Positions 2,327 through 30,762 of a DNA stretch of 32,000 nt are shown piece after piece (the stretch's first letter is position 1; each line of letters opens with the position of its first letter). A program made the position numbers and the translations under genes. This DNA is from Deinococcus radiodurans R1 = ATCC 13939 = DSM 20539 (GTDB taxonomy: Bacteria; Deinococcota; Deinococci; Deinococcales; Deinococcaceae). Location: contig NC_001263.1 of NCBI RefSeq assembly GCF_000008565.1, positions 1,664,676-1,696,675 of the forward strand. Reading direction: 5' to 3'. The notes beneath the pieces are model-generated. The model did not search any database. It was not told the origin of the DNA and saw only the letters and a list, made by a program, of their open reading frames with translations.

Positions 2327-2821
2327 ATGACCGACCGCAGCGACCGTTCGCAGCTCGCCTTTGCCCGCCTGCTTCCCCGGCTGTTCCGGGGCGGCCAGGC
2401 CTACGTGGGCGTCGAAGCCACCCTCAGCGACCTCAGCAGCGAGCAGGCCGCGCAGCATGCCGGGGGGCTGCCGCACAGCGTGGCCGAGCTGCTGGCGCAC
2501 GTAAACTGGTGGAACCGCTGGATGCTCGACATCATCGAGATGGGGCAAGCGCTCCCCTACCCCCCCCACGCCGCCGACACCTGGCCGCAGGTGGGTGCGG
2601 GCGACTGGGGTAACGTCAAGAACGAGTTTTACGAACTGCTCGCCCGCATCGACACCCACGCCGCCCGGCCCGACCTCGCCAGCCCCGTCAACCACGAGGA
2701 AACGATTGGCGAACTGCTCGCCGATTTCGCCCTGCACACGGCGCACCACTTCGGCCAGATCATCAGCGTGCGGCAGGCGCTGGGGGCGTGGCCGCCGGCG
2801 GGGGGCGGGGACACCTGGTGA
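2327..2821 (+). CDS. DinB/YfiT-like metal-dependent hydrolase family protein
   Basis: Start is the ATG at residue 42 of ORF 2204-2821. His-containing DinB helices are present (LLAHVNWW, HTAHHFGQI). Confidence 0.75.
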   Translation: MTDRSDRSQLAFARLLPRLFRGGQAYVGVEATLSDLSSEQAAQHAGGLPHSVAELLAHVNWWNRWMLDIIEMGQALPYPPHAADTWPQVGAGDWGNVKNEFYELLARIDTHAARPDLASPVNHEETIGELLADFALHTAHHFGQIISVRQALGAWPPAGGGDTW

Positions 2822-3309
2822 GCGAGCAGCCTGCCCAGGATTTTGCGAACGCCGCCGCGCAACTGTATCTGGGCGGCGTAGCCAATGTGACCTGGGAACG
2901 GGCGATAAGCGATCTGAGCGCAGCGGACGCCGGGCGCCGGCCCGCGGGGTTGCCGCACAGCGCCGCGCAAATAGTGGCGCATGTGCAGTTCTGGCAGCAC
3001 TACCTACTGGCGGTCATAGCCGGTGAAAACCCACCTGCCGTCGCCCACGCGGCTGAGGGCTGGCCCGCCGGCGAACTCCCAGCAGGCGAATGGGAAGCAC
3101 TCAGAGACCGCTTTTTGCGGGACGCCCAGCGGCTGCGCGACCTGACGCTGGACGCTTCATTGACCGCCTCGCCTGACCGCAAAGGCCGTCCTTACGCGGT
3201 AGCGCTGACCAACAGCGCCGGCCACAGCGTCTATCACCTGGGGCAGGTGGTCACGGTGCGGCAGGCGCTGGGCTTGTGGCCCCCAGTAGGGGGTGGCGCG
3301 ACATGGTGA
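2818..3309 (+). CDS. DinB/YfiT-like family protein (tandem paralogue)
   Basis: GTG 2818-2820 overlaps the upstream TGA (GTGA, 2818-2821). An ATG at 2788 is an alternative start. Same architecture as the upstream gene (IVAHVQFW, GHSVYHLGQV, and both end in LG.WPP.GGG.TW). Confidence 0.7.
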   Translation: MSEQPAQDFANAAAQLYLGGVANVTWERAISDLSAADAGRRPAGLPHSAAQIVAHVQFWQHYLLAVIAGENPPAVAHAAEGWPAGELPAGEWEALRDRFLRDAQRLRDLTLDASLTASPDRKGRPYAVALTNSAGHSVYHLGQVVTVRQALGLWPPVGGGATW

Positions 3310-4153
3310 GCGTGACCGAACTCAATGCCGGCAACTCCAGCCGCGCTTCACATGTCTGGCGGGTGGACGACGGCCAGCGCAGCGAGATTTACCGCCGCTC
3401 TTGGTGGACCACACCGGAAGTCAGCGCCTTCATGCTGGGGCTGGGGCAGCTGTTCGGGGTGGACCCCCGCGACCTGCACGCCACCGAATCGGCTTACGGG
3501 TTCTGGCGCGAGCTGGGCGTGTGGACCGTGCCGCAGACTACGGCCTGACCGAGTTCAGGGACGCTCCTGCCTTGCGGGTAGAATACGTGTCCGGTGACCC
3601 GAATGGCAGAACCTTCGCGGAGGCCGACACCCGGCTGTTAGGGCGCCAGATTGCTCAGGTGCATCAGCAAGCCGCCAGCTTTTTTGGTGACGTGTCGGGC
3701 CAACGCCGCCAGCCGCTCGAGCAGTTTTACGTCCGGGCGCTGGAAACCGTGCGGGCCACCGCGCCCCGTTATGCGCCGCAGAACTGGGCCGGGCACTGGG
3801 ACACAGTGGAGCGGGTCTTCGCTGCGGTACCCCCTCCCCGACAAGCCGCGCCCATGCTGCTCGACTGGAACGAAAGCCAGTTCGTGTGGCGCGGCGGGCA
3901 ACCGTACGCCCTGGTAGACGTAGAAGCCTCAGCAACAGCGCCGCCCGAACTGGACCTGACCTTCTGGGAATTGCTGCTGCCTGCCGGTGCCCCAGCTCAG
4001 GCGTTTCAAGCCGGTTACCGCGAGGTGCGGCCCTGGCCCGACCTGAACCCGCACCGGGCCGCCTGCCGCCTCATTTTGCTGGCACTGGAATCGGAAGGCA
4101 CCCGCGACGCTGCGCAGTGGCTGGCTCAACCGGCAGTTCTCGAGACGGCCTGA
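3303..4153 (+). pseudogene. kinase-fold (aminoglycoside/choline phosphotransferase-like) protein, reading frame broken about 3500-3546
   Basis: The N-terminal lobe is in the frame of ORF 3276-3548 (MVSVTELNAGNSSRASHVWRV...) and the rest is in the frame of ORF 3293-4153 (..YGLTEFRDAPALRVEYVSGD...LVDVEAS..ELDL). Together they give one ~283-aa protein if one base is added. ATG 3303 overlaps the stop of the upstream DinB gene. Confidence 0.45.
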
Positions 4154-4162
4154 GTCTTCGCC

Positions 4163-4909
4163 TTACTTACGCCGTTTTTCCGCCTGCACCATCGCCACGA
4201 ACTGCGCCAGGCGGGGGGCACGGCCCCAGCGTTTGCGGTCGCCGGCCACCCGCCAGACCCACTCCACGCCCATTTTGCGGGTCCATTCGGGGGCGAGCTG
4301 CGCGGTGCCAGCGAGCACGTCAATCACGCCGCCGCAGCCGATGGCGACTGGGGCGCGGTGAATCTGCTTCCAGTAGGCGTTGAAGATTTCCTGCCGCCCG
4401 GCGCCCATGCCTGTCAGCAACAGGTGCGCGCCGCTGGCCCCGACGAGTTCGGCCACCCGCTGGTCTTCATCGGGGCCGAAATAGCCGTGGTGAACGCCTG
4501 CCACCTGAATCCCGTAATCGCGCACGGCGTTTTGGGCGGCCTGCTCGGCCACACCCGGTTTGGACCCCAGGAAAAAGACCCGCAACTCGGGGCCGTGCCG
4601 CTCCATCAGCCCCTTGACCAGATCGAAACCCGGCGCACGCGGCACCTCGGCGCCGTAGAGCTGCCGCGCGGCGTAGACGATGCCCACGCCGTCGGCAGTC
4701 ACCAGATCGGCCTCCTGCATCGCCCGCACGAACTCGGGCTGGGTGCGCGACTGCACGATGAATTCAGGGTTGAGGGTGACCACCGTGTGCGGGGTGGGCG
4801 GCGACTCGAACAGCCAGCCGCTCAGCCGGTCCAGGGCGGCGTCCAGGGTCACGGGGTCGAGCGGCAAGTCGAAGAGAACCAGACGTTCGGGCAGGCTCTT
4901 GAGGCTCAT
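4163..4909 (-). CDS. WecB/TagA/CpsF-family glycosyltransferase (N-acetylmannosaminyltransferase-like)
   Basis: 248-aa ORF with an ATG start. The family pattern is recognisable (VVTLNPEF, ADLVTADGVGIV, LLLTGMGAGRQE, IGCGGVIDVLAG). Confidence 0.8.
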   Translation of the reverse strand: MSLKSLPERLVLFDLPLDPVTLDAALDRLSGWLFESPPTPHTVVTLNPEFIVQSRTQPEFVRAMQEADLVTADGVGIVYAARQLYGAEVPRAPGFDLVKGLMERHGPELRVFFLGSKPGVAEQAAQNAVRDYGIQVAGVHHGYFGPDEDQRVAELVGASGAHLLLTGMGAGRQEIFNAYWKQIHRAPVAIGCGGVIDVLAGTAQLAPEWTRKMGVEWVWRVAGDRKRWGRAPRLAQFVAMVQAEKRRK

Positions 4910-4917
4910 GTAGCGTG

Positions 4918-4923
4918 ATTGTA
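4918..4923 (-). promoter_or_regulatory. -10 box TACAAT, 8 nt upstream of the ATG at 4909 (leaderless-type promoter)
   Basis: The minus strand reads GCTACAATCACGCTACATG. There is no Shine-Dalgarno sequence between the box and the start. Confidence 0.45.
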
Positions 4924-4985
4924 GCCCGCAGCGCAGGTGCGACCTCCCGCCGCTGGGGGGCCTGCGCGGAGCACGGGGCTTGGGG

Positions 4986-5781: not shown

Positions 5782-7343
5782 ATGGGGCGGAACGTAGCGG
5801 CGGAATACAACAAAGGCACCTTGGGCGAGTTTCTCCGCCTCTCGCCGCGAGACGTGCAGCAGGCGCGGGCCGAGCGGCGCCCTGAGCTTGACCGGGTGGC
5901 CCTGGCCGCTGCCCTGCGCGAATACCACCGCGACCTGGGCACGCTGGACGCGGGCGTCGAGGCATTGCTGACGCGGCTCTCCCACCCCGAATCGCGCGTC
6001 GTTGTGACTGGGCAGCAGGCCGGCCTGCTCACCGGCCCCGCCTACAGCGTCCACAAGGGCGCGGGCGCGGCACTTCTCGCCCGGCAACTCGATGAGGAAG
6101 ACACCCCGGTGGTCGCCGTGTACTGGGTCGCCAGTCAGGACCACGACGCCGAGGAAGTCGCCAGCACCACGCTGCTCGACCTCAACGAAGACCTGCACCG
6201 CCTGACCCTCGACGTGCCGCCCGGCGTGCCGGTGGGCCGGGTGACGTGGCGCGAGGAGTGGACCGCCGAGGTGCTGGCGCTGCTTGACCGCTTCGAAGCT
6301 CCCACCGAGTACAAGGACGCCGTTCGCGCACGGATAGAGCGGGCCATCGCGGGCGGCGAGCGCCACAGCTACGCCGACGTGTTCGCCCGCCTCGTTCATG
6401 GGCTGCTCGCCCCCGCCGGGCTGCTGGTCCTCGACCCGCTGCACCCCGCGCTCGCCCGGCTGATGGCCCCGGCGCTTGCGCGCGAGCTTGAGCAGCCGCT
6501 CGCTTCCTCGGCGCGCATCGAGGACGCTGCCGAGCGTCTCAGCGCTGCCGGGTTCACGCCGCAACTGCGCCGCCCGGCGGGCGCGACCAATCTGTTTGTC
6601 GAGGAAGACGACAGCCAGCGCCGCCTGCTGCGCTTCGATGGGCAGAGCTTCAGCACCGAGACGCACCGGTATACCCGCGCCGACCTGCTTGCGCTGCTGA
6701 ATGCCGACCCCTCCCGTCTGACCCCCGCCGCAGGCTGCGCCCGGCGATTCAGGACACGCTGCTGCCCACCCTCGCCTTCGTCGTCGGCCCCGGCGAAATC
6801 GCGTATGGAGCGCAACTCAAAAACGTGTACCCGCTGCACGGCTTGCAACAACCCCTACTGTGGCCGCGCCTGAGCGTGACCTGGCTGGAACCCAATGTCG
6901 CCCGCTTGCTGCGCCGCCTCCGCGCCAGCGTCGCCGAGGTGCAGGCCGACCCGGCGGGCGTGCTGGGCCGCGCCCTGGCCGCCGAGCGGGACGCCGGGGC
7001 CGTGAGTGCCGAACGCCTTCAGAGCATCGAGGCCGAGCTGGAGCGGCTCATCGGCGACCTCGCGGCCCTCGACCCCACCCTGGTCGGTGCTGCCGAGCGC
7101 ACCCGCAAACGGGCCCTGCCGCGCGTCGCGCACCTTCAGCGCCTCGCCGTGAATGCCCTCGCCCGCGCCGAAAATGAGCGCAGCGGTCAGCTCACCCGTC
7201 TGCAAAAGCACCTGCTGCCCAACGGCACGCCCCAGGAACGTGAAATGAACTTCCTGACTTACCTGCTCAAGCACGGCGACACCCCGCTCCGGCAACTGCT
7301 GGCGCTGGACGCGGGGTTCGTAGGAGAAGTCGAGATTCCGTAA
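5782..7343 (+). pseudogene. bshC: bacillithiol biosynthesis cysteine-adding enzyme BshC, interrupted by an apparent 1-nt frameshift near 6734
   Basis: ORF 5782-6873 carries the N-terminal signature VVTGQQAGLLTGPAYSVHK. After ..SRLTPAAG the conserved continuation LRPAIQDTLLPTLAFVVGPGEIAYGAQL..LLWPR is in the adjacent frame (codons from 6735, same frame as ORF 6825-7343). Confidence 0.8.
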
Positions 7344-9740: not shown

Positions 9741-10289
9741 ATGAGTGATCCCACCAAACCGATTTCATCCGACCCCGCGCTGTCGCCGCCCGGCCAGGAG
9801 ATGACCGAGGGCGAGCGCCGCGCCCTGGAAATGGTCGAAGCCGCCGAGACGGGCGGGCGCAAGCTCCTCGGCTGGCAGGCCGGCCTGGTCACGACCATCG
9901 CCGTCGCGTGGTGCCTGTTTCAGATGTACGCCGCCTGGAACGGCACGCTGGTGCCGACCACCCTGCGGGCGATTCACCTCGCCTTCGCTTTTGCGCTCGC
10001 CTTTCTGGTCTTTCCCTTCCGCAAGACGCCAGGGCGCCCGCAGGTCGGGATTCCCTGGGGCGACTGGTTACTGGGGCTGCTGGCGACTGGGAGCGCCGCC
10101 TACTTCGTTATCGAGTACGCCAACATCGCCGCCAACGGGGGAATCCGCGACGGGGTGCCCGCCGACTTGTGGGCTGGGAGCGCGCTGGTCGTGATGCTGC
10201 TGCTCGCGGCGTGGCGCACCATCGGGATTGCCATGCCGCTGATTTCCACGGCTTTTATCCTCTTCGCCTTCATGGGCGCCAAGGGACTC
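9741..10289 (+). pseudogene. TRAP transporter fused (DctQ-DctM type) permease, N-terminal fragment (183 codons) cut by ISDra2
   Basis: GAGGA comes before ATG 9741. The frame runs to codon CTC 10287-10289, then continues 22 IS-encoded codons to TGA 10356-10358. Joining 10289 to 12026 restores ..FMGAKGL-IKAIQTPFHGGYTW.. in frame. Confidence 0.9.
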
Positions 10290-10430
10290 TTGAACCTCAC
10301 ACGACTAAAGTCGCGTGATTCTCACTTCGCAGACCATTGCCCGCCGAAGCAGGTCTGACATAGCCTCCATGAGCGTTTAAGGTGTCTGAGATTCCCGCAG
10401 CCACCAACGCTTCACGCCGAATGTTCAGCG
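10274..10430 (-). ncRNA. TnpB guide RNA (omega RNA / right-end RNA): scaffold from the tnpB 3' end plus RE, with a 16-nt guide from flanking DNA; 5' boundary approximate
   Basis: Family knowledge plus hairpins seen by eye on the minus strand. AACGCU 10437-10432 pairs with AGCGUU 10411-10406. CAGACC 10357-10352 pairs with GGUCUG 10335-10330 and encloses CUGC-UUCG-GCGG (10352-10341). RE hairpin at 10317-10298. The scaffold ends ..GUGUGAGGUUCAA at 10290. Guide GAGUCCCUUGGCGCCC = 10289-10274. Confidence 0.7.
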
Positions 10431-11523
10431 CAGCGTTCTCGTCTCGGTCATGGGTTTCCCCACAGTTCGGGCAAGTCCATGTACGGACGGCAAGATTCTT
10501 CACTTCGGGATTCTTGAATCCGCAGTCATGACACAACTGGCTAGATGGAAAGTAGGGGCTGACTTTAGATACCAGTCGCCCGTACCACGCTGCCTTGTAT
10601 TCCAACTGCCGGATGAACTCACCCCAGCCCGCATCACTGATGCTCAGTGCAAGGCGGCGATTTTTCCGCATGTTGTCGGGTTTAAGGTGTTCGGTTCCGA
10701 TGATTTCGTACTCACGCACCAGGGAGGTGGTGAGCTTGTGAAGGAAATCCTGACGCTTATTGACAATGCGCTTGTGAATCCGAGCCAGCTTGGTTTTCGC
10801 TTTCCCGTAACGTGCGCTGCCCTTCTTCCGTCTGGACAGGGTTTGCTGAGCTTTACGAAGTCTTTTCAGGGTGGAGCGGTAATATTTCGGATTCTGTTCA
10901 TGCTTAAACCTCACGCCATCGGTCACGATGGCAAAATCCTTGATGCCGACATCCACACCCGCTGCAAACTTGGGAGCCGCAGGCAGGTAGGGAATCTCGA
11001 CTTCACAGAGAACGGACGCTTCGTAATGGCCTTCGTGAATACGGCGCACAGTGACATTCAGAATCTTCCCTTGAATATCCTGCTGGCCCTTGGTTTTCAC
11101 CCATCCCAGCTTAGGAAGTTTGAGCCTACCTTCCCCAATTTGGATGTTGTTGTTGGTGAATTGAGTCCGGTAGGACTCTCCCGTGCGCTTCTTTCTGAAA
11201 CGTGGGAATCCTACCTTTTTACCGGACTGCTTCACAGTCCGAAAGAAGTTCTTGTACGCGGTCTCAAGGTTTTTCAGCGAGTTCTGCAAAGCAAACTTAT
11301 CTACTTCCGAGAGCCAGGAGGTTTCTTCAGCCTGCTTCAGAAGGGTCAGTTCGCTACTCGTTTGCCCGTAGGTCAGTCCCTTCCCGCTTTCCTTGTAGGC
11401 CGCAATGCGACGGGCAAGGAAGTGGTTGTAGACGAACCTTGCGCTACCCAGCGTGCGGTTAATCAGTTCAGTCTGAGCCGCATTTGGGTACAGCCTGACC
11501 ACGAAAGCCTTATTCCTTATCAT
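10297..11523 (-). CDS. tnpB: TnpB, RNA-guided DNA endonuclease (RuvC-like, Cas12 ancestor class)
   Basis: 408 aa. RuvC D191 (GVDVGIKD), E278 (IIGTEHL), D361 ([10 protein letters not shown]). Zinc finger CHDCG..CPNCG. The start overlaps the tnpA stop by 14 nt. Confidence 0.97.
10298..10317 (-). other. RE subterminal imperfect hairpin (TnpA recognition structure)
   Basis: The minus strand reads CACGCGACT-TT-AGTCGTGTG, with one mismatched pair. It is followed by AGGTTCAA up to the element end. Confidence 0.8.
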
Positions 11524-11932
11524 GCTGGCTCTCTATGTATTTCTGAATCTGAGCGCGGGTGTTTTCAGAAACAGTCAGGATGCAATACGACGGGTTCCAG
11601 AGATTGCCGCCCCACAGCTTTTCTTTCAACTGCGGGTAGGCCACGAACATCCGACGTGCGGAAGCGCCTTTCAGCGCCTTCACGAAGTCGGGGATGGCTT
11701 GCTGTGGGGTTGCGCTTAGCAGGAGGTGAACGTGGTCAGGCATGACTTCCATCGTGATGACTTCCAGCCCGTTCTGAGCGGCAATGTCACGCAGGATGTC
11801 TTTCAGTCCATCAGCAACCTCACCCACCAACACCTGATGACGGTATTTCACGCACCAGATGAGGTGGTATTCAAGCTGATAGACGTAACCCCGGCCTTTC
11901 TTCATCTCAAGGGGAAGAATAACATATGTCAT
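11510..11932 (-). CDS. tnpA: TnpA, IS200/IS605-family Y1 (HUH) single-strand DNA transposase
   Basis: 140 aa. HUH motif DHVHLLL (H67/H69). Catalytic Tyr132 in QKYIESQ. Confidence 0.97.
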
Positions 11933-11961
11933 CTGGAAAAGCTAGAGGCTTCCGCTTTTCA

Positions 11962-11979
11962 TCGCCCTTTTCAGGGCGA
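11962..11979 (-). other. second LE hairpin, perfect 7-bp stem with a GAAA loop
   Basis: The minus strand reads TCGCCCT-GAAA-AGGGCGA (11979-11962). It lies between the TnpA-type hairpin and the tnpA start. Function unknown. Confidence 0.5.
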
Positions 11980-11989
11980 GAGGGGCTAA

Positions 11990-12009
11990 CTCATGACTGA
12001 AGTCACGAG
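11990..12009 (-). other. LE subterminal imperfect hairpin (TnpA recognition structure)
   Basis: The minus strand reads CTCGTGACT-TC-AGTCATGAG. It has the same GACT-NN-AGTC core and the same mismatch position as the RE hairpin. Confidence 0.8.
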
Positions 12010-12025
12010 TGTGCGCCCCTCAAGC

Positions 12026-13600
<1,575 letters not shown>

Positions 13601-26740: not shown

Positions 26741-28117
<1,377 letters not shown>

Positions 28118-28130
28118 GGCCGCGCCGCCT

Positions 28131-29564
28131 TCACCCGATCAGGATGTCCCGGTCTGCCGGGTAGCGGGTAAGCATCTTTTCGGACGCCGGACGGCTGAAC
28201 GCCACCGCGAAAGTCAATGGCCCGATGCGCCCCAGGAACATCAGCGCGATGAGGACGGCTTCCTGCGCGGTGTTGAGCAGCGGCGTGGTGTTCATGCTCA
28301 GGCCCGCCGTGCCGAAGGCACTGACCGTCTCGAAAAAGAGTTGCAAGAACAGCACCTTCTTGTTGGTGTTGAGCAGCAGCATCAGCATGAAGCCCGCCGT
28401 GACCAGCCCCATGCTCAGCAGCCCCACCGTCATGGCACGCAGAAGCGTCTCGGTGTCGATGCGGCGGTCAAAAAGCGTGGTGTCGCGCCGCCCGCGCACC
28501 ATGCTCCACGCCGAGGCGACGATGACGTAAAAGGTGTTCGTCTTGATGCCGCCGCCCGTAGAGCCGGGGTTGGCCCCGATGAACATCCACACGATGGTCA
28601 TGAACAGCGCCGGAAAGCCCATCAGCCCGTAGTCGAGGGTGTTGAAGCCCGCCGTGCGCGGCGTCACGCTCTGAAACCACGATGCGAGCAGCTTGCCGTG
28701 CAGCGGCAGCGGCGCGAGCGTCCCCGGGTTGTTCCACTCGGTCAGGGCGAAAAACACGGTGCCGACCACCAGCAGCACGCCCGTCATGGTCAGTGAGAGC
28801 CGGGTATTCGTGCTCAGGCGGTTGCGGCGGCGGTCGCGCAGCCAGCCGAGCAGGTTGAGCTGCACCAGAAACCCCATGCCGCCGAAAATGATCAGCAGCG
28901 TGACCACCATGTTGATGAGCGGGTCGGACACGAAGCCCGTCAGGTTGGTGGAATAGAGGCTGAAACCCGCGTTGTTGAACGAGCTGATGGAGTGAAAAAT
29001 GGCGTAGTAGATGCCGCGCAGTACGCCCTCACGCGGAATGAATGCGGGCAGCAGCAGCAGCGCCCCGAGGCCCTCAAACAGCAGCGAGGTCAGCACAATG
29101 GAGCGCACCAGCGAGGTCGCGCTGCCCAGGCTGGTCGCACTCACCTGCTGCTGCGCGTTGATGCGCCCGATGACTCCCAGCCGCCGCCGCAGCGCGAGCG
29201 CGAACAGCGTGCCGAGCGTAATGATGCCCAGCCCGCCCACCTGAATCAGCAGCAGCATGACGCTCTCGCCGAACACGTTGAAGGTGCTGCCGGGGTCCAC
29301 CACCGCCAGCCCGGTCACGCACACGCAGCTCGTCGCCATGAAAAGGGCCTGGATAAAGGTGATGGACTTGCCCGCCTCGTGCGCGAACGGCAGCCACAAC
29401 AGCACGGCCCCGATGAGAATGGCGGCGGCAAAGGTCAGCGCGATGAGTTGTGGGGGCCGCAGGCGCGAGGTCCAGGGGCGGCGGGTTTCCGCCGGGCGAC
29501 CCGGTCCTCTTTGGCTGGCACTCTGGGAGGCCAGATCACGCGGGGCAGGGCCAGGACGGGTCAT
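28131..29564 (-). CDS. trkH: TrkH/KtrB-family K+ transporter membrane subunit (copy 2, paralogue)
   Basis: ATG at residue 36 of ORF 28131-29669. Same motif series (TGLAVV, QVGGLGIITLG, NNAGF, GSTGGGIKTNT). Its stop lies 13 nt before the start of copy 1. Confidence 0.85.
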   Translation of the reverse strand: MTRPGPAPRDLASQSASQRGPGRPAETRRPWTSRLRPPQLIALTFAAAILIGAVLLWLPFAHEAGKSITFIQALFMATSCVCVTGLAVVDPGSTFNVFGESVMLLLIQVGGLGIITLGTLFALALRRRLGVIGRINAQQQVSATSLGSATSLVRSIVLTSLLFEGLGALLLLPAFIPREGVLRGIYYAIFHSISSFNNAGFSLYSTNLTGFVSDPLINMVVTLLIIFGGMGFLVQLNLLGWLRDRRRNRLSTNTRLSLTMTGVLLVVGTVFFALTEWNNPGTLAPLPLHGKLLASWFQSVTPRTAGFNTLDYGLMGFPALFMTIVWMFIGANPGSTGGGIKTNTFYVIVASAWSMVRGRRDTTLFDRRIDTETLLRAMTVGLLSMGLVTAGFMLMLLLNTNKKVLFLQLFFETVSAFGTAGLSMNTTPLLNTAQEAVLIALMFLGRIGPLTFAVAFSRPASEKMLTRYPADRDILIG

Positions 29565-29576
29565 AGAACGGGGCGG

Positions 29577-29585
29577 ATTGTAGCA
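29577..29585 (-). promoter_or_regulatory. extended -10 promoter TGCTACAAT, 12 nt upstream of the trkH (copy 2) ATG
   Basis: The minus strand reads GGTGCTACAATCCGCCCCGTTCTATG. Confidence 0.45.
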
Positions 29586-29629
29586 CCGCGCCGGGCCAGG
29601 GCCGCGCGGCTCACATGGACCGACCGGGC

Positions 29630-29635
29630 TATACT
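29630..29635 (+). promoter_or_regulatory. -10 box TATACT, 8 nt upstream of the ATG at 29644 (leaderless-type promoter)
   Basis: GGCTATACTGCTCCGCTATG. No Shine-Dalgarno sequence. Confidence 0.5.
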
Positions 29636-29643
29636 GCTCCGCT

Positions 29644-30762
29644 ATGCCGCGCCCCCGTTCCAACAGCAACCCCGCCTACGCCAACCGCTCGTCTGTGGGC
29701 AAAACCAGCAAAAAGAGCCGTCCCAAGGGGGACTACCGCGCCCGGCAGCCCGCGCGCGAGTACGAACTCGACGTGCTGCCGGGGCTGGAGGAGGTGGCGG
29801 CCACCGAACTTGCGGGGGTCCCGCTCGCCCGCGATGTCCGGGGCCTGCGCTTCTGGTATCCCGGCAGCCCCGAGCGGCTGACCCGGCTCCGCTCGGCGGT
29901 GGCCGTCTACCGCATCAAGTCCTGGGACGTGCCGCGCCCGCGCGGGCTGCTCGGGCACCAGCAACTCGGCGAACTCGTCAGCTACGTGCGCGAGGTGACC
30001 GAGGTGGGCGGGCACCGCTCCTTCCGCATCGGCGCGGCGGGCAAGGAGTCACCGACCATGCAGCGGCTCGCCGAGGAACTCAGCGCGGCGCTCGGCCTGC
30101 CCCACGACCCCGAGGAAGGCGAACTGCTGCTGCGGCTGCGGCCCTCGGCAGATAGGCAGGGCGCGGACGGGCAAGGCTGGGACGTGCTCGCCCGCATTAC
30201 CCCCCGGCCCCTCTCGGCGCGGGCGTGGCGCGAGTGCAACATGGGCGGGGGGCTGAACGCCACCATCGCCTACGCCATGCATAAACTCGCCGGGCAACGC
30301 GACGAGGACCGCATCTTCAACCCCATGAGCGGCAGCGGCACCCTGCTCATCGAGCGGGCGCTGCTGGGGCCGTATGCCGCGCTCGTCGGGGTGGACATCG
30401 ACCCCGTTGCCGTGGCCTGCGCCCGCACCAACCTCAGGGCGGCGGGCAAGGAAGTGGAGGTCGCGCAGGTGGACGCGCTGCACACCGGGCTGCCTTCCCG
30501 CTCCTTTGACCTCGTCATCAGTGACCTGCCGTGGGGAGACGCCATCGGCTCGCACCAGAGCAACGAGACGCTTTACCCCGCCTTCCTCAAGGAAATGCAC
30601 CGCCTGACCAGTCGCCGGGGCCGGCTGTGCCTCCTCACCCACGAACTGCGCCTGTTTGAGCGCGTCATGCGCGAGCAGAGCGACTGGGAAGCGAAGGAAC
30701 TGTTTCAGGTCTACAGCGGCGGGCACCACCCGAAGGCGTACCTGCTGCACAAGCGGGGATAG
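29644..30762 (+). CDS. class I SAM-dependent methyltransferase of the UPF0020/THUMP-associated RNA methyltransferase type
   Basis: Motif I FNPMSGSGTLLIE and motif IV SDLPWG (NPPY-like). The ~170-aa N-terminal domain has THUMP-like layout (tentative). Confidence 0.6.
   Translation: MPRPRSNSNPAYANRSSVGKTSKKSRPKGDYRARQPAREYELDVLPGLEEVAATELAGVPLARDVRGLRFWYPGSPERLTRLRSAVAVYRIKSWDVPRPRGLLGHQQLGELVSYVREVTEVGGHRSFRIGAAGKESPTMQRLAEELSAALGLPHDPEEGELLLRLRPSADRQGADGQGWDVLARITPRPLSARAWRECNMGGGLNATIAYAMHKLAGQRDEDRIFNPMSGSGTLLIERALLGPYAALVGVDIDPVAVACARTNLRAAGKEVEVAQVDALHTGLPSRSFDLVISDLPWGDAIGSHQSNETLYPAFLKEMHRLTSRRGRLCLLTHELRLFERVMREQSDWEAKELFQVYSGGHHPKAYLLHKRG

Follow-up and report, generated by a model that had tools for sequence, protein, structure and literature searches.

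The ωRNA of ISDra2 at its native locus in Deinococcus radiodurans: published fold, native guide and a vacant target allele

TnpB, the RNA-guided nuclease of the IS200/IS605 element ISDra2, co-purifies with an RNA of ~150 nt when the whole element is expressed, and this RNA comprises the 3′ end of tnpB, the transposon right end (RE) and ~16 nt of flanking DNA (Karvelis et al, 2021, PMC8612924). The TnpB–RNA complex cuts double-stranded DNA in which the transposon-associated motif (TAM) TTGAT is followed by a match to the guide (PMC8612924); expression of the RNA, binding by TnpB and TAM-dependent cleavage have been published from E. coli, in vitro and human cell work (PMC8612924; PMC10097598). 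Cryo-electron microscopy (cryo-EM) describes the omega RNA (ωRNA, also termed reRNA) as a 116-nt scaffold (positions −116 to −1) plus a 16-nt guide, with stems 1–4, a triplex and a pseudoknot (Nakagawa et al, 2023, PMC10097598). Here we analyze the corresponding region in a 32,000-nt stretch of Deinococcus radiodurans R1 DNA (hereafter the window), where a preliminary description had placed a structured RNA of this kind at 10440–10274 on the minus strand. There is very little doubt in our minds that this stretch, at the tnpB 3′ end, is the ωRNA of ISDra2 and represents the reference molecule at its native locus. The ISDra2 ωRNA is already known; the call made from the sequence was right, and part of the fold proposed with it is wrong.

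All 32 bases quoted in the cryo-EM paper (PMC10097598) match the window when position −1 is set at 10290, and we therefore place the scaffold at 10405–10290, where it covers the last 36 tnpB codons and 7 nt past the stop, and the guide at 10289–10274. The TnpB encoded by this copy is identical, residue for residue over all 408 aa, to that of PDB entries 8BF8, 8EX9, 8EXA and 8H1J (“RNA-guided DNA endonuclease TnpB”). The TnpB-bound RNA which the preliminary description had put forward, built from the tnpB 3′ end, the RE and ~16 nt of flank, is the same RNA that Karvelis et al sequenced (PMC8612924). Its parts, all on the minus strand, map to the window as follows.

10290–10405, minus strand: ωRNA scaffold core (−1 to −116), visible by cryo-EM and sufficient for cleavage; covariance model score 131.9 bits, with covariation.
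10381–10405, minus strand: stem 1 hairpin (−116 to −107 with −101 to −92); seen by cryo-EM, with CG/GC/UA/AU exchanges in the upper helix among 87 sequences.
10391–10395, minus strand: pseudoknot 5′ strand GGAAU in the stem 1 loop (−106 to −102); seen by cryo-EM, with 80% (alignment A1) and 91.6% (87-sequence set A3) of cells paired.
10291–10295, minus strand: pseudoknot 3′ strand GUUCA (−6 to −2), overlapping the right-end cleavage sequence TTCAA.
10375–10380, minus strand: UUAAAC (−91 to −86), the triple-helix third strand on stem 1 (PMC10097598); AAAC core invariant in the Deinococcus copies.
10369–10374, minus strand: stem 2, 5′ strand (−85 to −80); 95% paired, with double changes in four of five pairs.
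10320–10325, minus strand: stem 2, 3′ strand (−36 to −31); cryo-EM and covariation.
10360–10366, minus strand: stem 3a, 5′ strand AGGCUAU (−77 to −71); double changes in four of seven pairs among 14 copies.
10331–10337, minus strand: stem 3a, 3′ strand AUGGUCU (−48 to −42), part of which had earlier been paired with CAGACC.
10338–10359, minus strand: stem 3b, hairpin CCUGC-UUCG-GCGGG (−70 to −49); flexible, dispensable, and absent in the natural loci L006 and L129.
10298–10317, minus strand: stem 4, the RE subterminal hairpin (−28 to −9); part of the ωRNA as RNA, the TnpA-binding hairpin as single-stranded DNA.
10406–10520, minus strand: 5′ region of the 247-nt construct (−117 to −231), tnpB coding; trimmed, not needed for cleavage, and without covariation.
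10274–10289, minus strand: ωRNA guide (+1 to +16), GAGUCCCUUGGCGCCC; host flank DNA, antisense to the TRAP permease 5′ fragment.

In the solved structure the pseudoknot joins −105 to −103 with −5 to −3, flanked by the non-canonical pairs −106:−2 and −102:−6, such that the RNA UUC pairs with the GAA at −105 to −103 and not with the GAA at −32 to −30 as the primary sequence would predict; stem 2 is formed by −84 to −81 with −35 to −32, and stem 3a by −77 to −71 with −48 to −42 (PMC10097598). Stem 3b is not resolved by cryo-EM, and its removal in the Trim2 deletion leaves TnpB active; cleavage does not need the segment from −231 to −117, which is disordered and is trimmed off in cells. The Trim1 deletion retains full activity, and a 3′ fragment of at least 130 nt stays bound to TnpB (PMC10097598).

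Every string quoted in the preliminary description is present on the minus strand where it had been located (AACGCU 10437–10432, AGCGUU 10411–10406, CAGACC 10357–10352, GGUCUG 10335–10330), and two of its four helices are those of the solved RNA: the UUCG hairpin (CUGC-UUCG-GCGG, 10352–10341) is stem 3b, and the RE hairpin CACGCGACU-UU-AGUCGUGUG (10317–10298) is stem 4. The other two helices do not hold (see below), and stems 1, 2 and 3a, the triplex strand and the pseudoknot had been missed. The RNA had been drawn from 10440, with the caveat that sequence alone does not reveal its exact 5′ end; the functional 5′ end lies at 10405, ~35 nt downstream.

Conservation of this fold was assessed in homologous right ends, nine from Deinococcus (by genome scan with TnpB) and three from Deinococcus plasmids, with further right ends found by the RE pattern GAATCNCGNGACTTNAGTCNTGNGARRTTCA on more than 120 metagenome contigs and 18 viral contigs. 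Fourteen Deinococcus-type copies were aligned with MAFFT (alignment A1), and a covariance model built from 12 copies gave 87 matches at E < 0.001 from 81 sources; the 87-sequence alignment is fitted to the covariance model and hence favors the structure somewhat. Controls consisted of sliding pairing partners by 1–3 columns and of 500 shuffles.

With the published fold and pseudoknot imposed on the 14 copies, 88.1% of cells are paired (30–41% when slid) and 14 of 42 pairs are changed on both sides, a value as high as which was seen in none of the 500 shuffles. The 87 family members behave likewise, with 92.8% of cells paired (34–40% when slid) and compensatory changes in 29 of 39 pairs, amounting to 555 cells (0/500 shuffles as high). 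RNAalifold, applied de novo to an unfitted MAFFT alignment, recovers stems 1, 2, 3a, 3b and 4. The two variable pairs of stem 4 remain paired in 84/87 and 87/87 sequences, with exchanges AU/CG/UA and CG/UA. That the published fold is conserved through compensatory changes is thus strongly supported. The 3′ strand of the pseudoknot was held constant by the search pattern, and for this reason only one-sided changes are visible in these main sets (A/G opposite U, C/U opposite G); at more distant TnpB loci hit by the covariance model, inspection by eye reveals apparently compensatory versions (GGC(AU):(AU)GUC in L009 and L010, and GGAUU:AAUCC in L015, as compared to GAAU:GUUC in ISDra2).

Several relatives depart from the ISDra2 arrangement. 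Stem 3b is wholly missing in L006:1268–1370 (D. marmoris) and L129:8354–8458 (metagenome), which mirrors the active engineered Trim2 variant. At L017:1973–1995 (D. marmoris), the stem 4 part of the covariance model matches the left-end (LE) hairpin ~500 nt upstream of tnpB; the LE and RE hairpins have a common core, CGYGACTTYAGTCRTG, as this match shows. In eleven Clostridium plasmids, a stretch of 33–42 nt agrees fully or almost fully with the ISDra2 right end, taking in stem 4 and GAGGTTCAA; seven of them match at 100% over 33–35 nt and four at 90.5% over 42 nt. In the one Clostridium locus inspected (L019:2499–2535; C. botulinum plasmid NZ_CP031095.1, 37670–37704), the matching sequence stands out as GC-rich within AT-rich surroundings and directly follows the tail of an unannotated TnpB-like open reading frame (ORF). 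The RE module is much more conserved across phyla than the remaining element. Metagenome contigs also contain ωRNA-like scaffolds with no overlapping tnpB (L100:10616–10714 and 10758–10860; L043:3314–3403, 4164–4253 and 4870–4984), the two on L100 lying 44 nt apart with a terminator-like palindrome between them; these could be gene-less mini-elements or stand-alone guide modules.

The scaffold shares its DNA with the end of tnpB. Homologous tnpB genes end with TGA either at −10 to −8, within stem 4 as in ISDra2, or at −40 to −38 (L002, L003, L007 and L011); because the gene ends 30 nt earlier in the latter group, coding conservation does not extend to the last ten codons of ISDra2 TnpB. Compensatory changes maintain stems 2 and 4 in both groups despite this 30-nt shift; in the right ends of the four early-stop loci, a G stands where ISDra2 has the U of its stop codon, and an A-to-C exchange across stem 4 compensates for it. 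TnpB residues 376–408 are disordered and dispensable (PMC10097598). The dispensable tail, together with a mobile stop codon and retained pairing, supports selection on the RNA in this stretch, as the preliminary description had supposed from the low complexity of the tail peptide.

We observe that the guide has a naturally occurring target. The two permease fragments that flank the element encode, when joined, a 707-aa protein 100% identical to one from public assemblies (P0001). Two element-free contigs from Logan assemblies of SRR12023111 and SRR12023067 (L161, 2009–2098, and L162, 1152–1241) encode this intact 707-aa permease and are 100% identical to both window flanks over ~5 kb. On the minus strand the vacant allele reads ...GGCC TTGAT, followed without interruption by GAGTCCCTTGGCGCCC and ATGAAGG, placing the TAM immediately ahead of an exact 16-nt guide match; the vacant-site DNA is TTGATGAGTCCCTTGGCGCCC, as compared to TTCAAGAGTCCC... 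at the occupied junction. This comparison bears out both the element end GAGGUUCAA at 10290 with its 16-nt flank and the guide GAGUCCCUUGGCGCCC, antisense to the TRAP permease fragment, as they had been proposed. At the occupied junction TTCAA precedes GAGTCC..., giving two TAM mismatches; because TnpB cleavage is TAM-dependent (PMC8612924) and this junction has TTCAA rather than TTGAT, the resident copy is spared. The occupied junction is the sole match in the window, which has no other site with TTGAT plus the guide at up to three mismatches. Some of the D. radiodurans material that has been sequenced thus lacks this ISDra2 copy or has lost it by excision.

Folding energies accord with the comparative result. 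The 167-nt stretch at 10440–10274 folds at −66.3 kcal/mol (z = −2.6 against dinucleotide shuffles, 3/200 shuffles as good); the folding check suggested in the preliminary description sets the stretch somewhat apart from shuffled sequence, and yet fails to reproduce the solved fold. The minimum free energy (MFE) structure of the single 167-nt sequence misses this fold through mispairing by the guide and the additional 5′ sequence, whereas the MFE structure of −116 to −1 alone (−41.0 kcal/mol) corresponds closely to the published nested fold (−38.8 kcal/mol).

Could the RNA be real and yet folded as the preliminary description drew it, with a 5′ stem at 10437–10406, CAGACC/GGUCUG around the UUCG hairpin, and the RE hairpin? 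The 5′ stem is indeed present in the MFE fold of the 167 nt, and CAGACC and GGUCUG are perfect 6-bp complements in this copy, but we regard this arrangement as scarcely credible. The two extra stems show no covariation: over 14 homologues 62.8% of their cells are paired, the observed values are reached by 153/500 and 387/500 shuffles, and the three double-changed pairs across both stems, fewer than in shuffles, include none from CAGACC/GGUCUG. The latter stem competes with solved stem 3a, in which GGUCU pairs with AGGCU, and the 5′ stem (−148 to −117) falls outside the solved and functional scaffold, in the disordered and dispensable segment (PMC10097598). In energetic terms, the published nested fold of the scaffold stands at −38.8 kcal/mol, while the earlier pairing reaches −20.2 kcal/mol, or −28.5 when stem 1 is included; stems 3a and 3b together give −13.1 kcal/mol against −8.1 for the CAGACC/GGUCUG version. 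The covariation test speaks against a conserved outer 5′ stem (10437–10406); the inner CGCYG/CGGCG helix of this hairpin is invariant in alignable homologues. It is unlikely, in our estimation, that the 10406–10440 hairpin (−148 to −117, within RuvC-III coding sequence) serves a function in the mRNA, such as setting the position of the RuvC-dependent 5′ cut or cis-inhibition of the kind reported for AmaTnpB.

Two further explanations dispense with a guide function. Conservation might reflect only DNA-level TnpA signals (hairpin and cleavage site) and TnpB-tail coding, with no functional native RNA made from this copy; stem 4 and TTCAA are in fact single-stranded DNA substrates of TnpA (PMC2806898), coding extends to 10297, and neither native-host expression data nor a predicted promoter was found. 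We give this account hardly any credence, as compensatory changes run through stems 1–3, 40–116 nt inside the end and past the 43-nt RE substrate of TnpA, pairing is conserved where the stop-codon position is not, and the RNA co-purifies with TnpB upon whole-element expression (PMC8612924). Alternatively, instead of guiding a nuclease, the read-out transcript could serve mainly as antisense RNA against what remains of the TRAP permease mRNA, or regulate tnpB in cis as a 3′ untranslated region or attenuator. Both the guide and a longer read-through, if any, run antisense to the 5′ fragment of the permease gene, and an inhibitory mRNA region has been reported for an orthologue (PMC10278001); such a role is nevertheless exceedingly improbable, given that the permease is already destroyed by the insertion (and therefore leaves nothing to regulate), that no U-tract terminator follows stem 4, and that guide function has been demonstrated for this very scaffold (PMC10097598; PMC8612924).

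Certain observations weigh against a functional, native ISDra2 ωRNA folded as published, and are best taken together. No D. radiodurans expression data were found in the literature consulted, the published RNA-seq and northern blots being from E. coli, and a review of Deinococcus TnpB (PMC12477157) contains no native-host expression data. The thermodynamic signal is modest when considered alone (z = −2.6 for the 167 nt, −1.9 for the scaffold). Pseudoknot covariation is limited in the main sets, and the compensatory cases in distant relatives were judged by eye. The vacant alleles in public data imply either that retention through homing is not absolute or that the strains concerned never had the copy. 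Finally, no sigma-70-like promoter or intrinsic terminator was seen on the minus strand in a scan of 10000–12200, on account of which the native 5′ and 3′ ends are placed by inference; an independent ωRNA promoter, or use of the RE hairpin as a terminator, is unsupported by this empty scan, which is consistent with (and no proof of) an origin from the tnpB transcript.

Taking this stretch as the ISDra2 ωRNA, published work permits a provisional account of how it would operate here. The RNA would derive from the tnpB transcript, with its 5′ end probably trimmed by the RuvC site of TnpB, as in an orthologue where this site trims the 5′ side of TnpB's own mRNA and not the 3′ side (PMC10278001), and with its 3′ end presumably set by host nucleases. 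TnpA is known to excise the top strand as a circle and reseal the donor joint (PMC2806898), and at this locus would likewise remove ISDra2 from one strand to leave a resealed joint. In line with the donor-joint model of TnpB action (PMC8612924), TnpB–ωRNA may then cut that joint, and repair or recombination with the sister copy may restore the element. The proximal 12 nt are the only part of the guide that ISDra2 TnpB is noted to use (PMC10278001), and homing at vacant sites is described in a further report (10.1101/2023.11.20.567912).

The element and the host gene that it interrupts have the following layout.

10290–12025, minus strand: ISDra2, whole IS200/IS605 element of 1,736 bp, ends set by comparison with the vacant allele.
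10297–11523, minus strand: tnpB, 408 aa, RNA-guided RuvC nuclease with a zinc-finger TNB domain (Pfam HTH_OrfB_IS605, OrfB_IS605, Cas12f1-like_TNB).
10299–10297, minus strand: tnpB stop codon TGA, within stem 4.
11510–11932, minus strand: tnpA, 140 aa, Y1/HUH single-strand transposase (Pfam Y1_Tnp), overlapping tnpB.
11989–12010, minus strand: LE subterminal hairpin ACTCGTGACTTCAGTCATGAGT, sharing its core with the RE hairpin.
12026–12030, minus strand: TTGAT, TnpA insertion target and TnpB TAM, directly 5′ of the LE.
9741–10289, plus strand: TRAP (4TM/12TM) fused permease gene, interrupted, 5′ fragment.
12026–13600, plus strand: TRAP permease gene, 3′ fragment, in frame with the 5′ fragment when joined.

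The 1736 bp are the published length of ISDra2 (PMC2806898), and the locus has the expected attributes of this element: tnpA and tnpB share one strand, both ends have a subterminal hairpin, TTGAT adjoins the LE on its 5′ side, and the target is not duplicated. TnpA aligns over its full length with PDB 2XM3, 2XQC, 2XMA and 2XO6. Upstream of the element, bshC (5782–7343, plus strand) is present as two overlapping ORFs, 5782–6873 encoding a Rossmann-like domain and 6825–7343 a coiled-coil domain. DR_1647 is known as a bshC pseudogene through a one-base frameshift found in BAA-816 and not in ATCC 13939K (PMC11219805). Gene order is compatible with the numbering DR_1647 to DR_1653, in which case the element sits at DR_1651/DR_1652, four genes downstream of bshC. 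Because the split bshC corresponds to the DR_1647 pseudogene and gene order agrees, we tentatively place the element at DR1651–1652; the literature and this arrangement together indicate that it is probably copy ISDra2F (DR1651–DR1652), the single active copy of the ATCC 13939 laboratory strain (PMC2806898; PMC11219805). GC content at third codon positions is 0.61–0.64 in tnpA and tnpB as against 0.74–0.92 in the surrounding host genes, suggesting that ISDra2 may be of foreign origin.

Sweeps of the whole window for repeats, tRNAs and Pfam domains returned ordinary housekeeping genes and nothing tied to the element. Two tandem TrkH paralogues (26741–29669, minus strand) contain blocks of 70–86% identity at a spacing of ~1.39 kb, unrelated to ISDra2. 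The 3′ end of a DinB_2-family ORF (2788–3309, within 2728–3312, plus strand) is ~70% identical to a 97-nt stretch located 488 nt upstream; both cases are ordinary duplications, the second again without relation to ISDra2.

The ISDra2 ωRNA, characterized biochemically and structurally since 2021–2023, serves as the reference case for guides that are encoded by transposons and are ancestral to those of Cas12, and compact TnpB genome editors are built on it. The main value of the present analysis lies in calibration: a reading from the sequence alone identified this RNA, its boundary and its guide, and yet two of four hand-drawn helices were wrong, so that local complementarity in a single sequence is unreliable for this RNA. 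What is added here is small, namely that a natural vacant allele has the TAM next to an exact match to the native DR1651–1652 guide, and that the published fold is backed by extensive covariation in more than 80 relatives.

With respect to catalogued RNA families, neither the window nor 16 homologous loci gave an Rfam 15 match above threshold. Membership of RF03015 (Transposase-2 RNA) was considered and rejected, as the score of 14.2 bits (E = 3) falls far below the gathering score of 42.7; this sole sub-threshold match is a weak local likeness at 10275–10328 on the minus strand, consisting of a GAAG-N-GAA segment and a hairpin. The IscB ωRNA of the OMEGA systems, reportedly described by Altae-Tran and colleagues in 2021, resembles that of ISDra2 in serving a transposon nuclease guided by RNA across the transposon end. 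It differs in that its guide is located 5′, its scaffold is larger and of another kind, and its protein has both HNH and RuvC domains. In relation to TnpA recognition in the IS200/IS605 family (IS608 and ISDra2; PMC3201880, PMC2806898; 2XM3/2XQC), the same nucleotides, 10298–10317 plus TTCAA, are used in both functions; TnpA reads the hairpin and cleavage site on single-stranded DNA, whereas TnpB reads the ωRNA on RNA.

Compared to the published ISDra2 reRNA/ωRNA (PMC8612924; PMC10097598; PDB 8H1J, 8EXA, 8EX9, 8BF8), the RNA at this locus is the same molecule, with the same scaffold, numbering and TTGAT TAM, and only the guide differs, being the native DR1651–1652 flank GAGUCCCUUGGCGCCC where published work has mostly used engineered guides. 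In common with the Cas12f sgRNA (tracrRNA:crRNA) and other Cas12 guides, the guide lies at the 3′ end and the required motif 5′ of the target (PMC10097598). Unlike Cas12f, TnpB is monomeric, and unlike Cas12 guides, the ISDra2 ωRNA is a single transcript from a transposon end, with a guide fixed by the insertion site and no CRISPR spacer.

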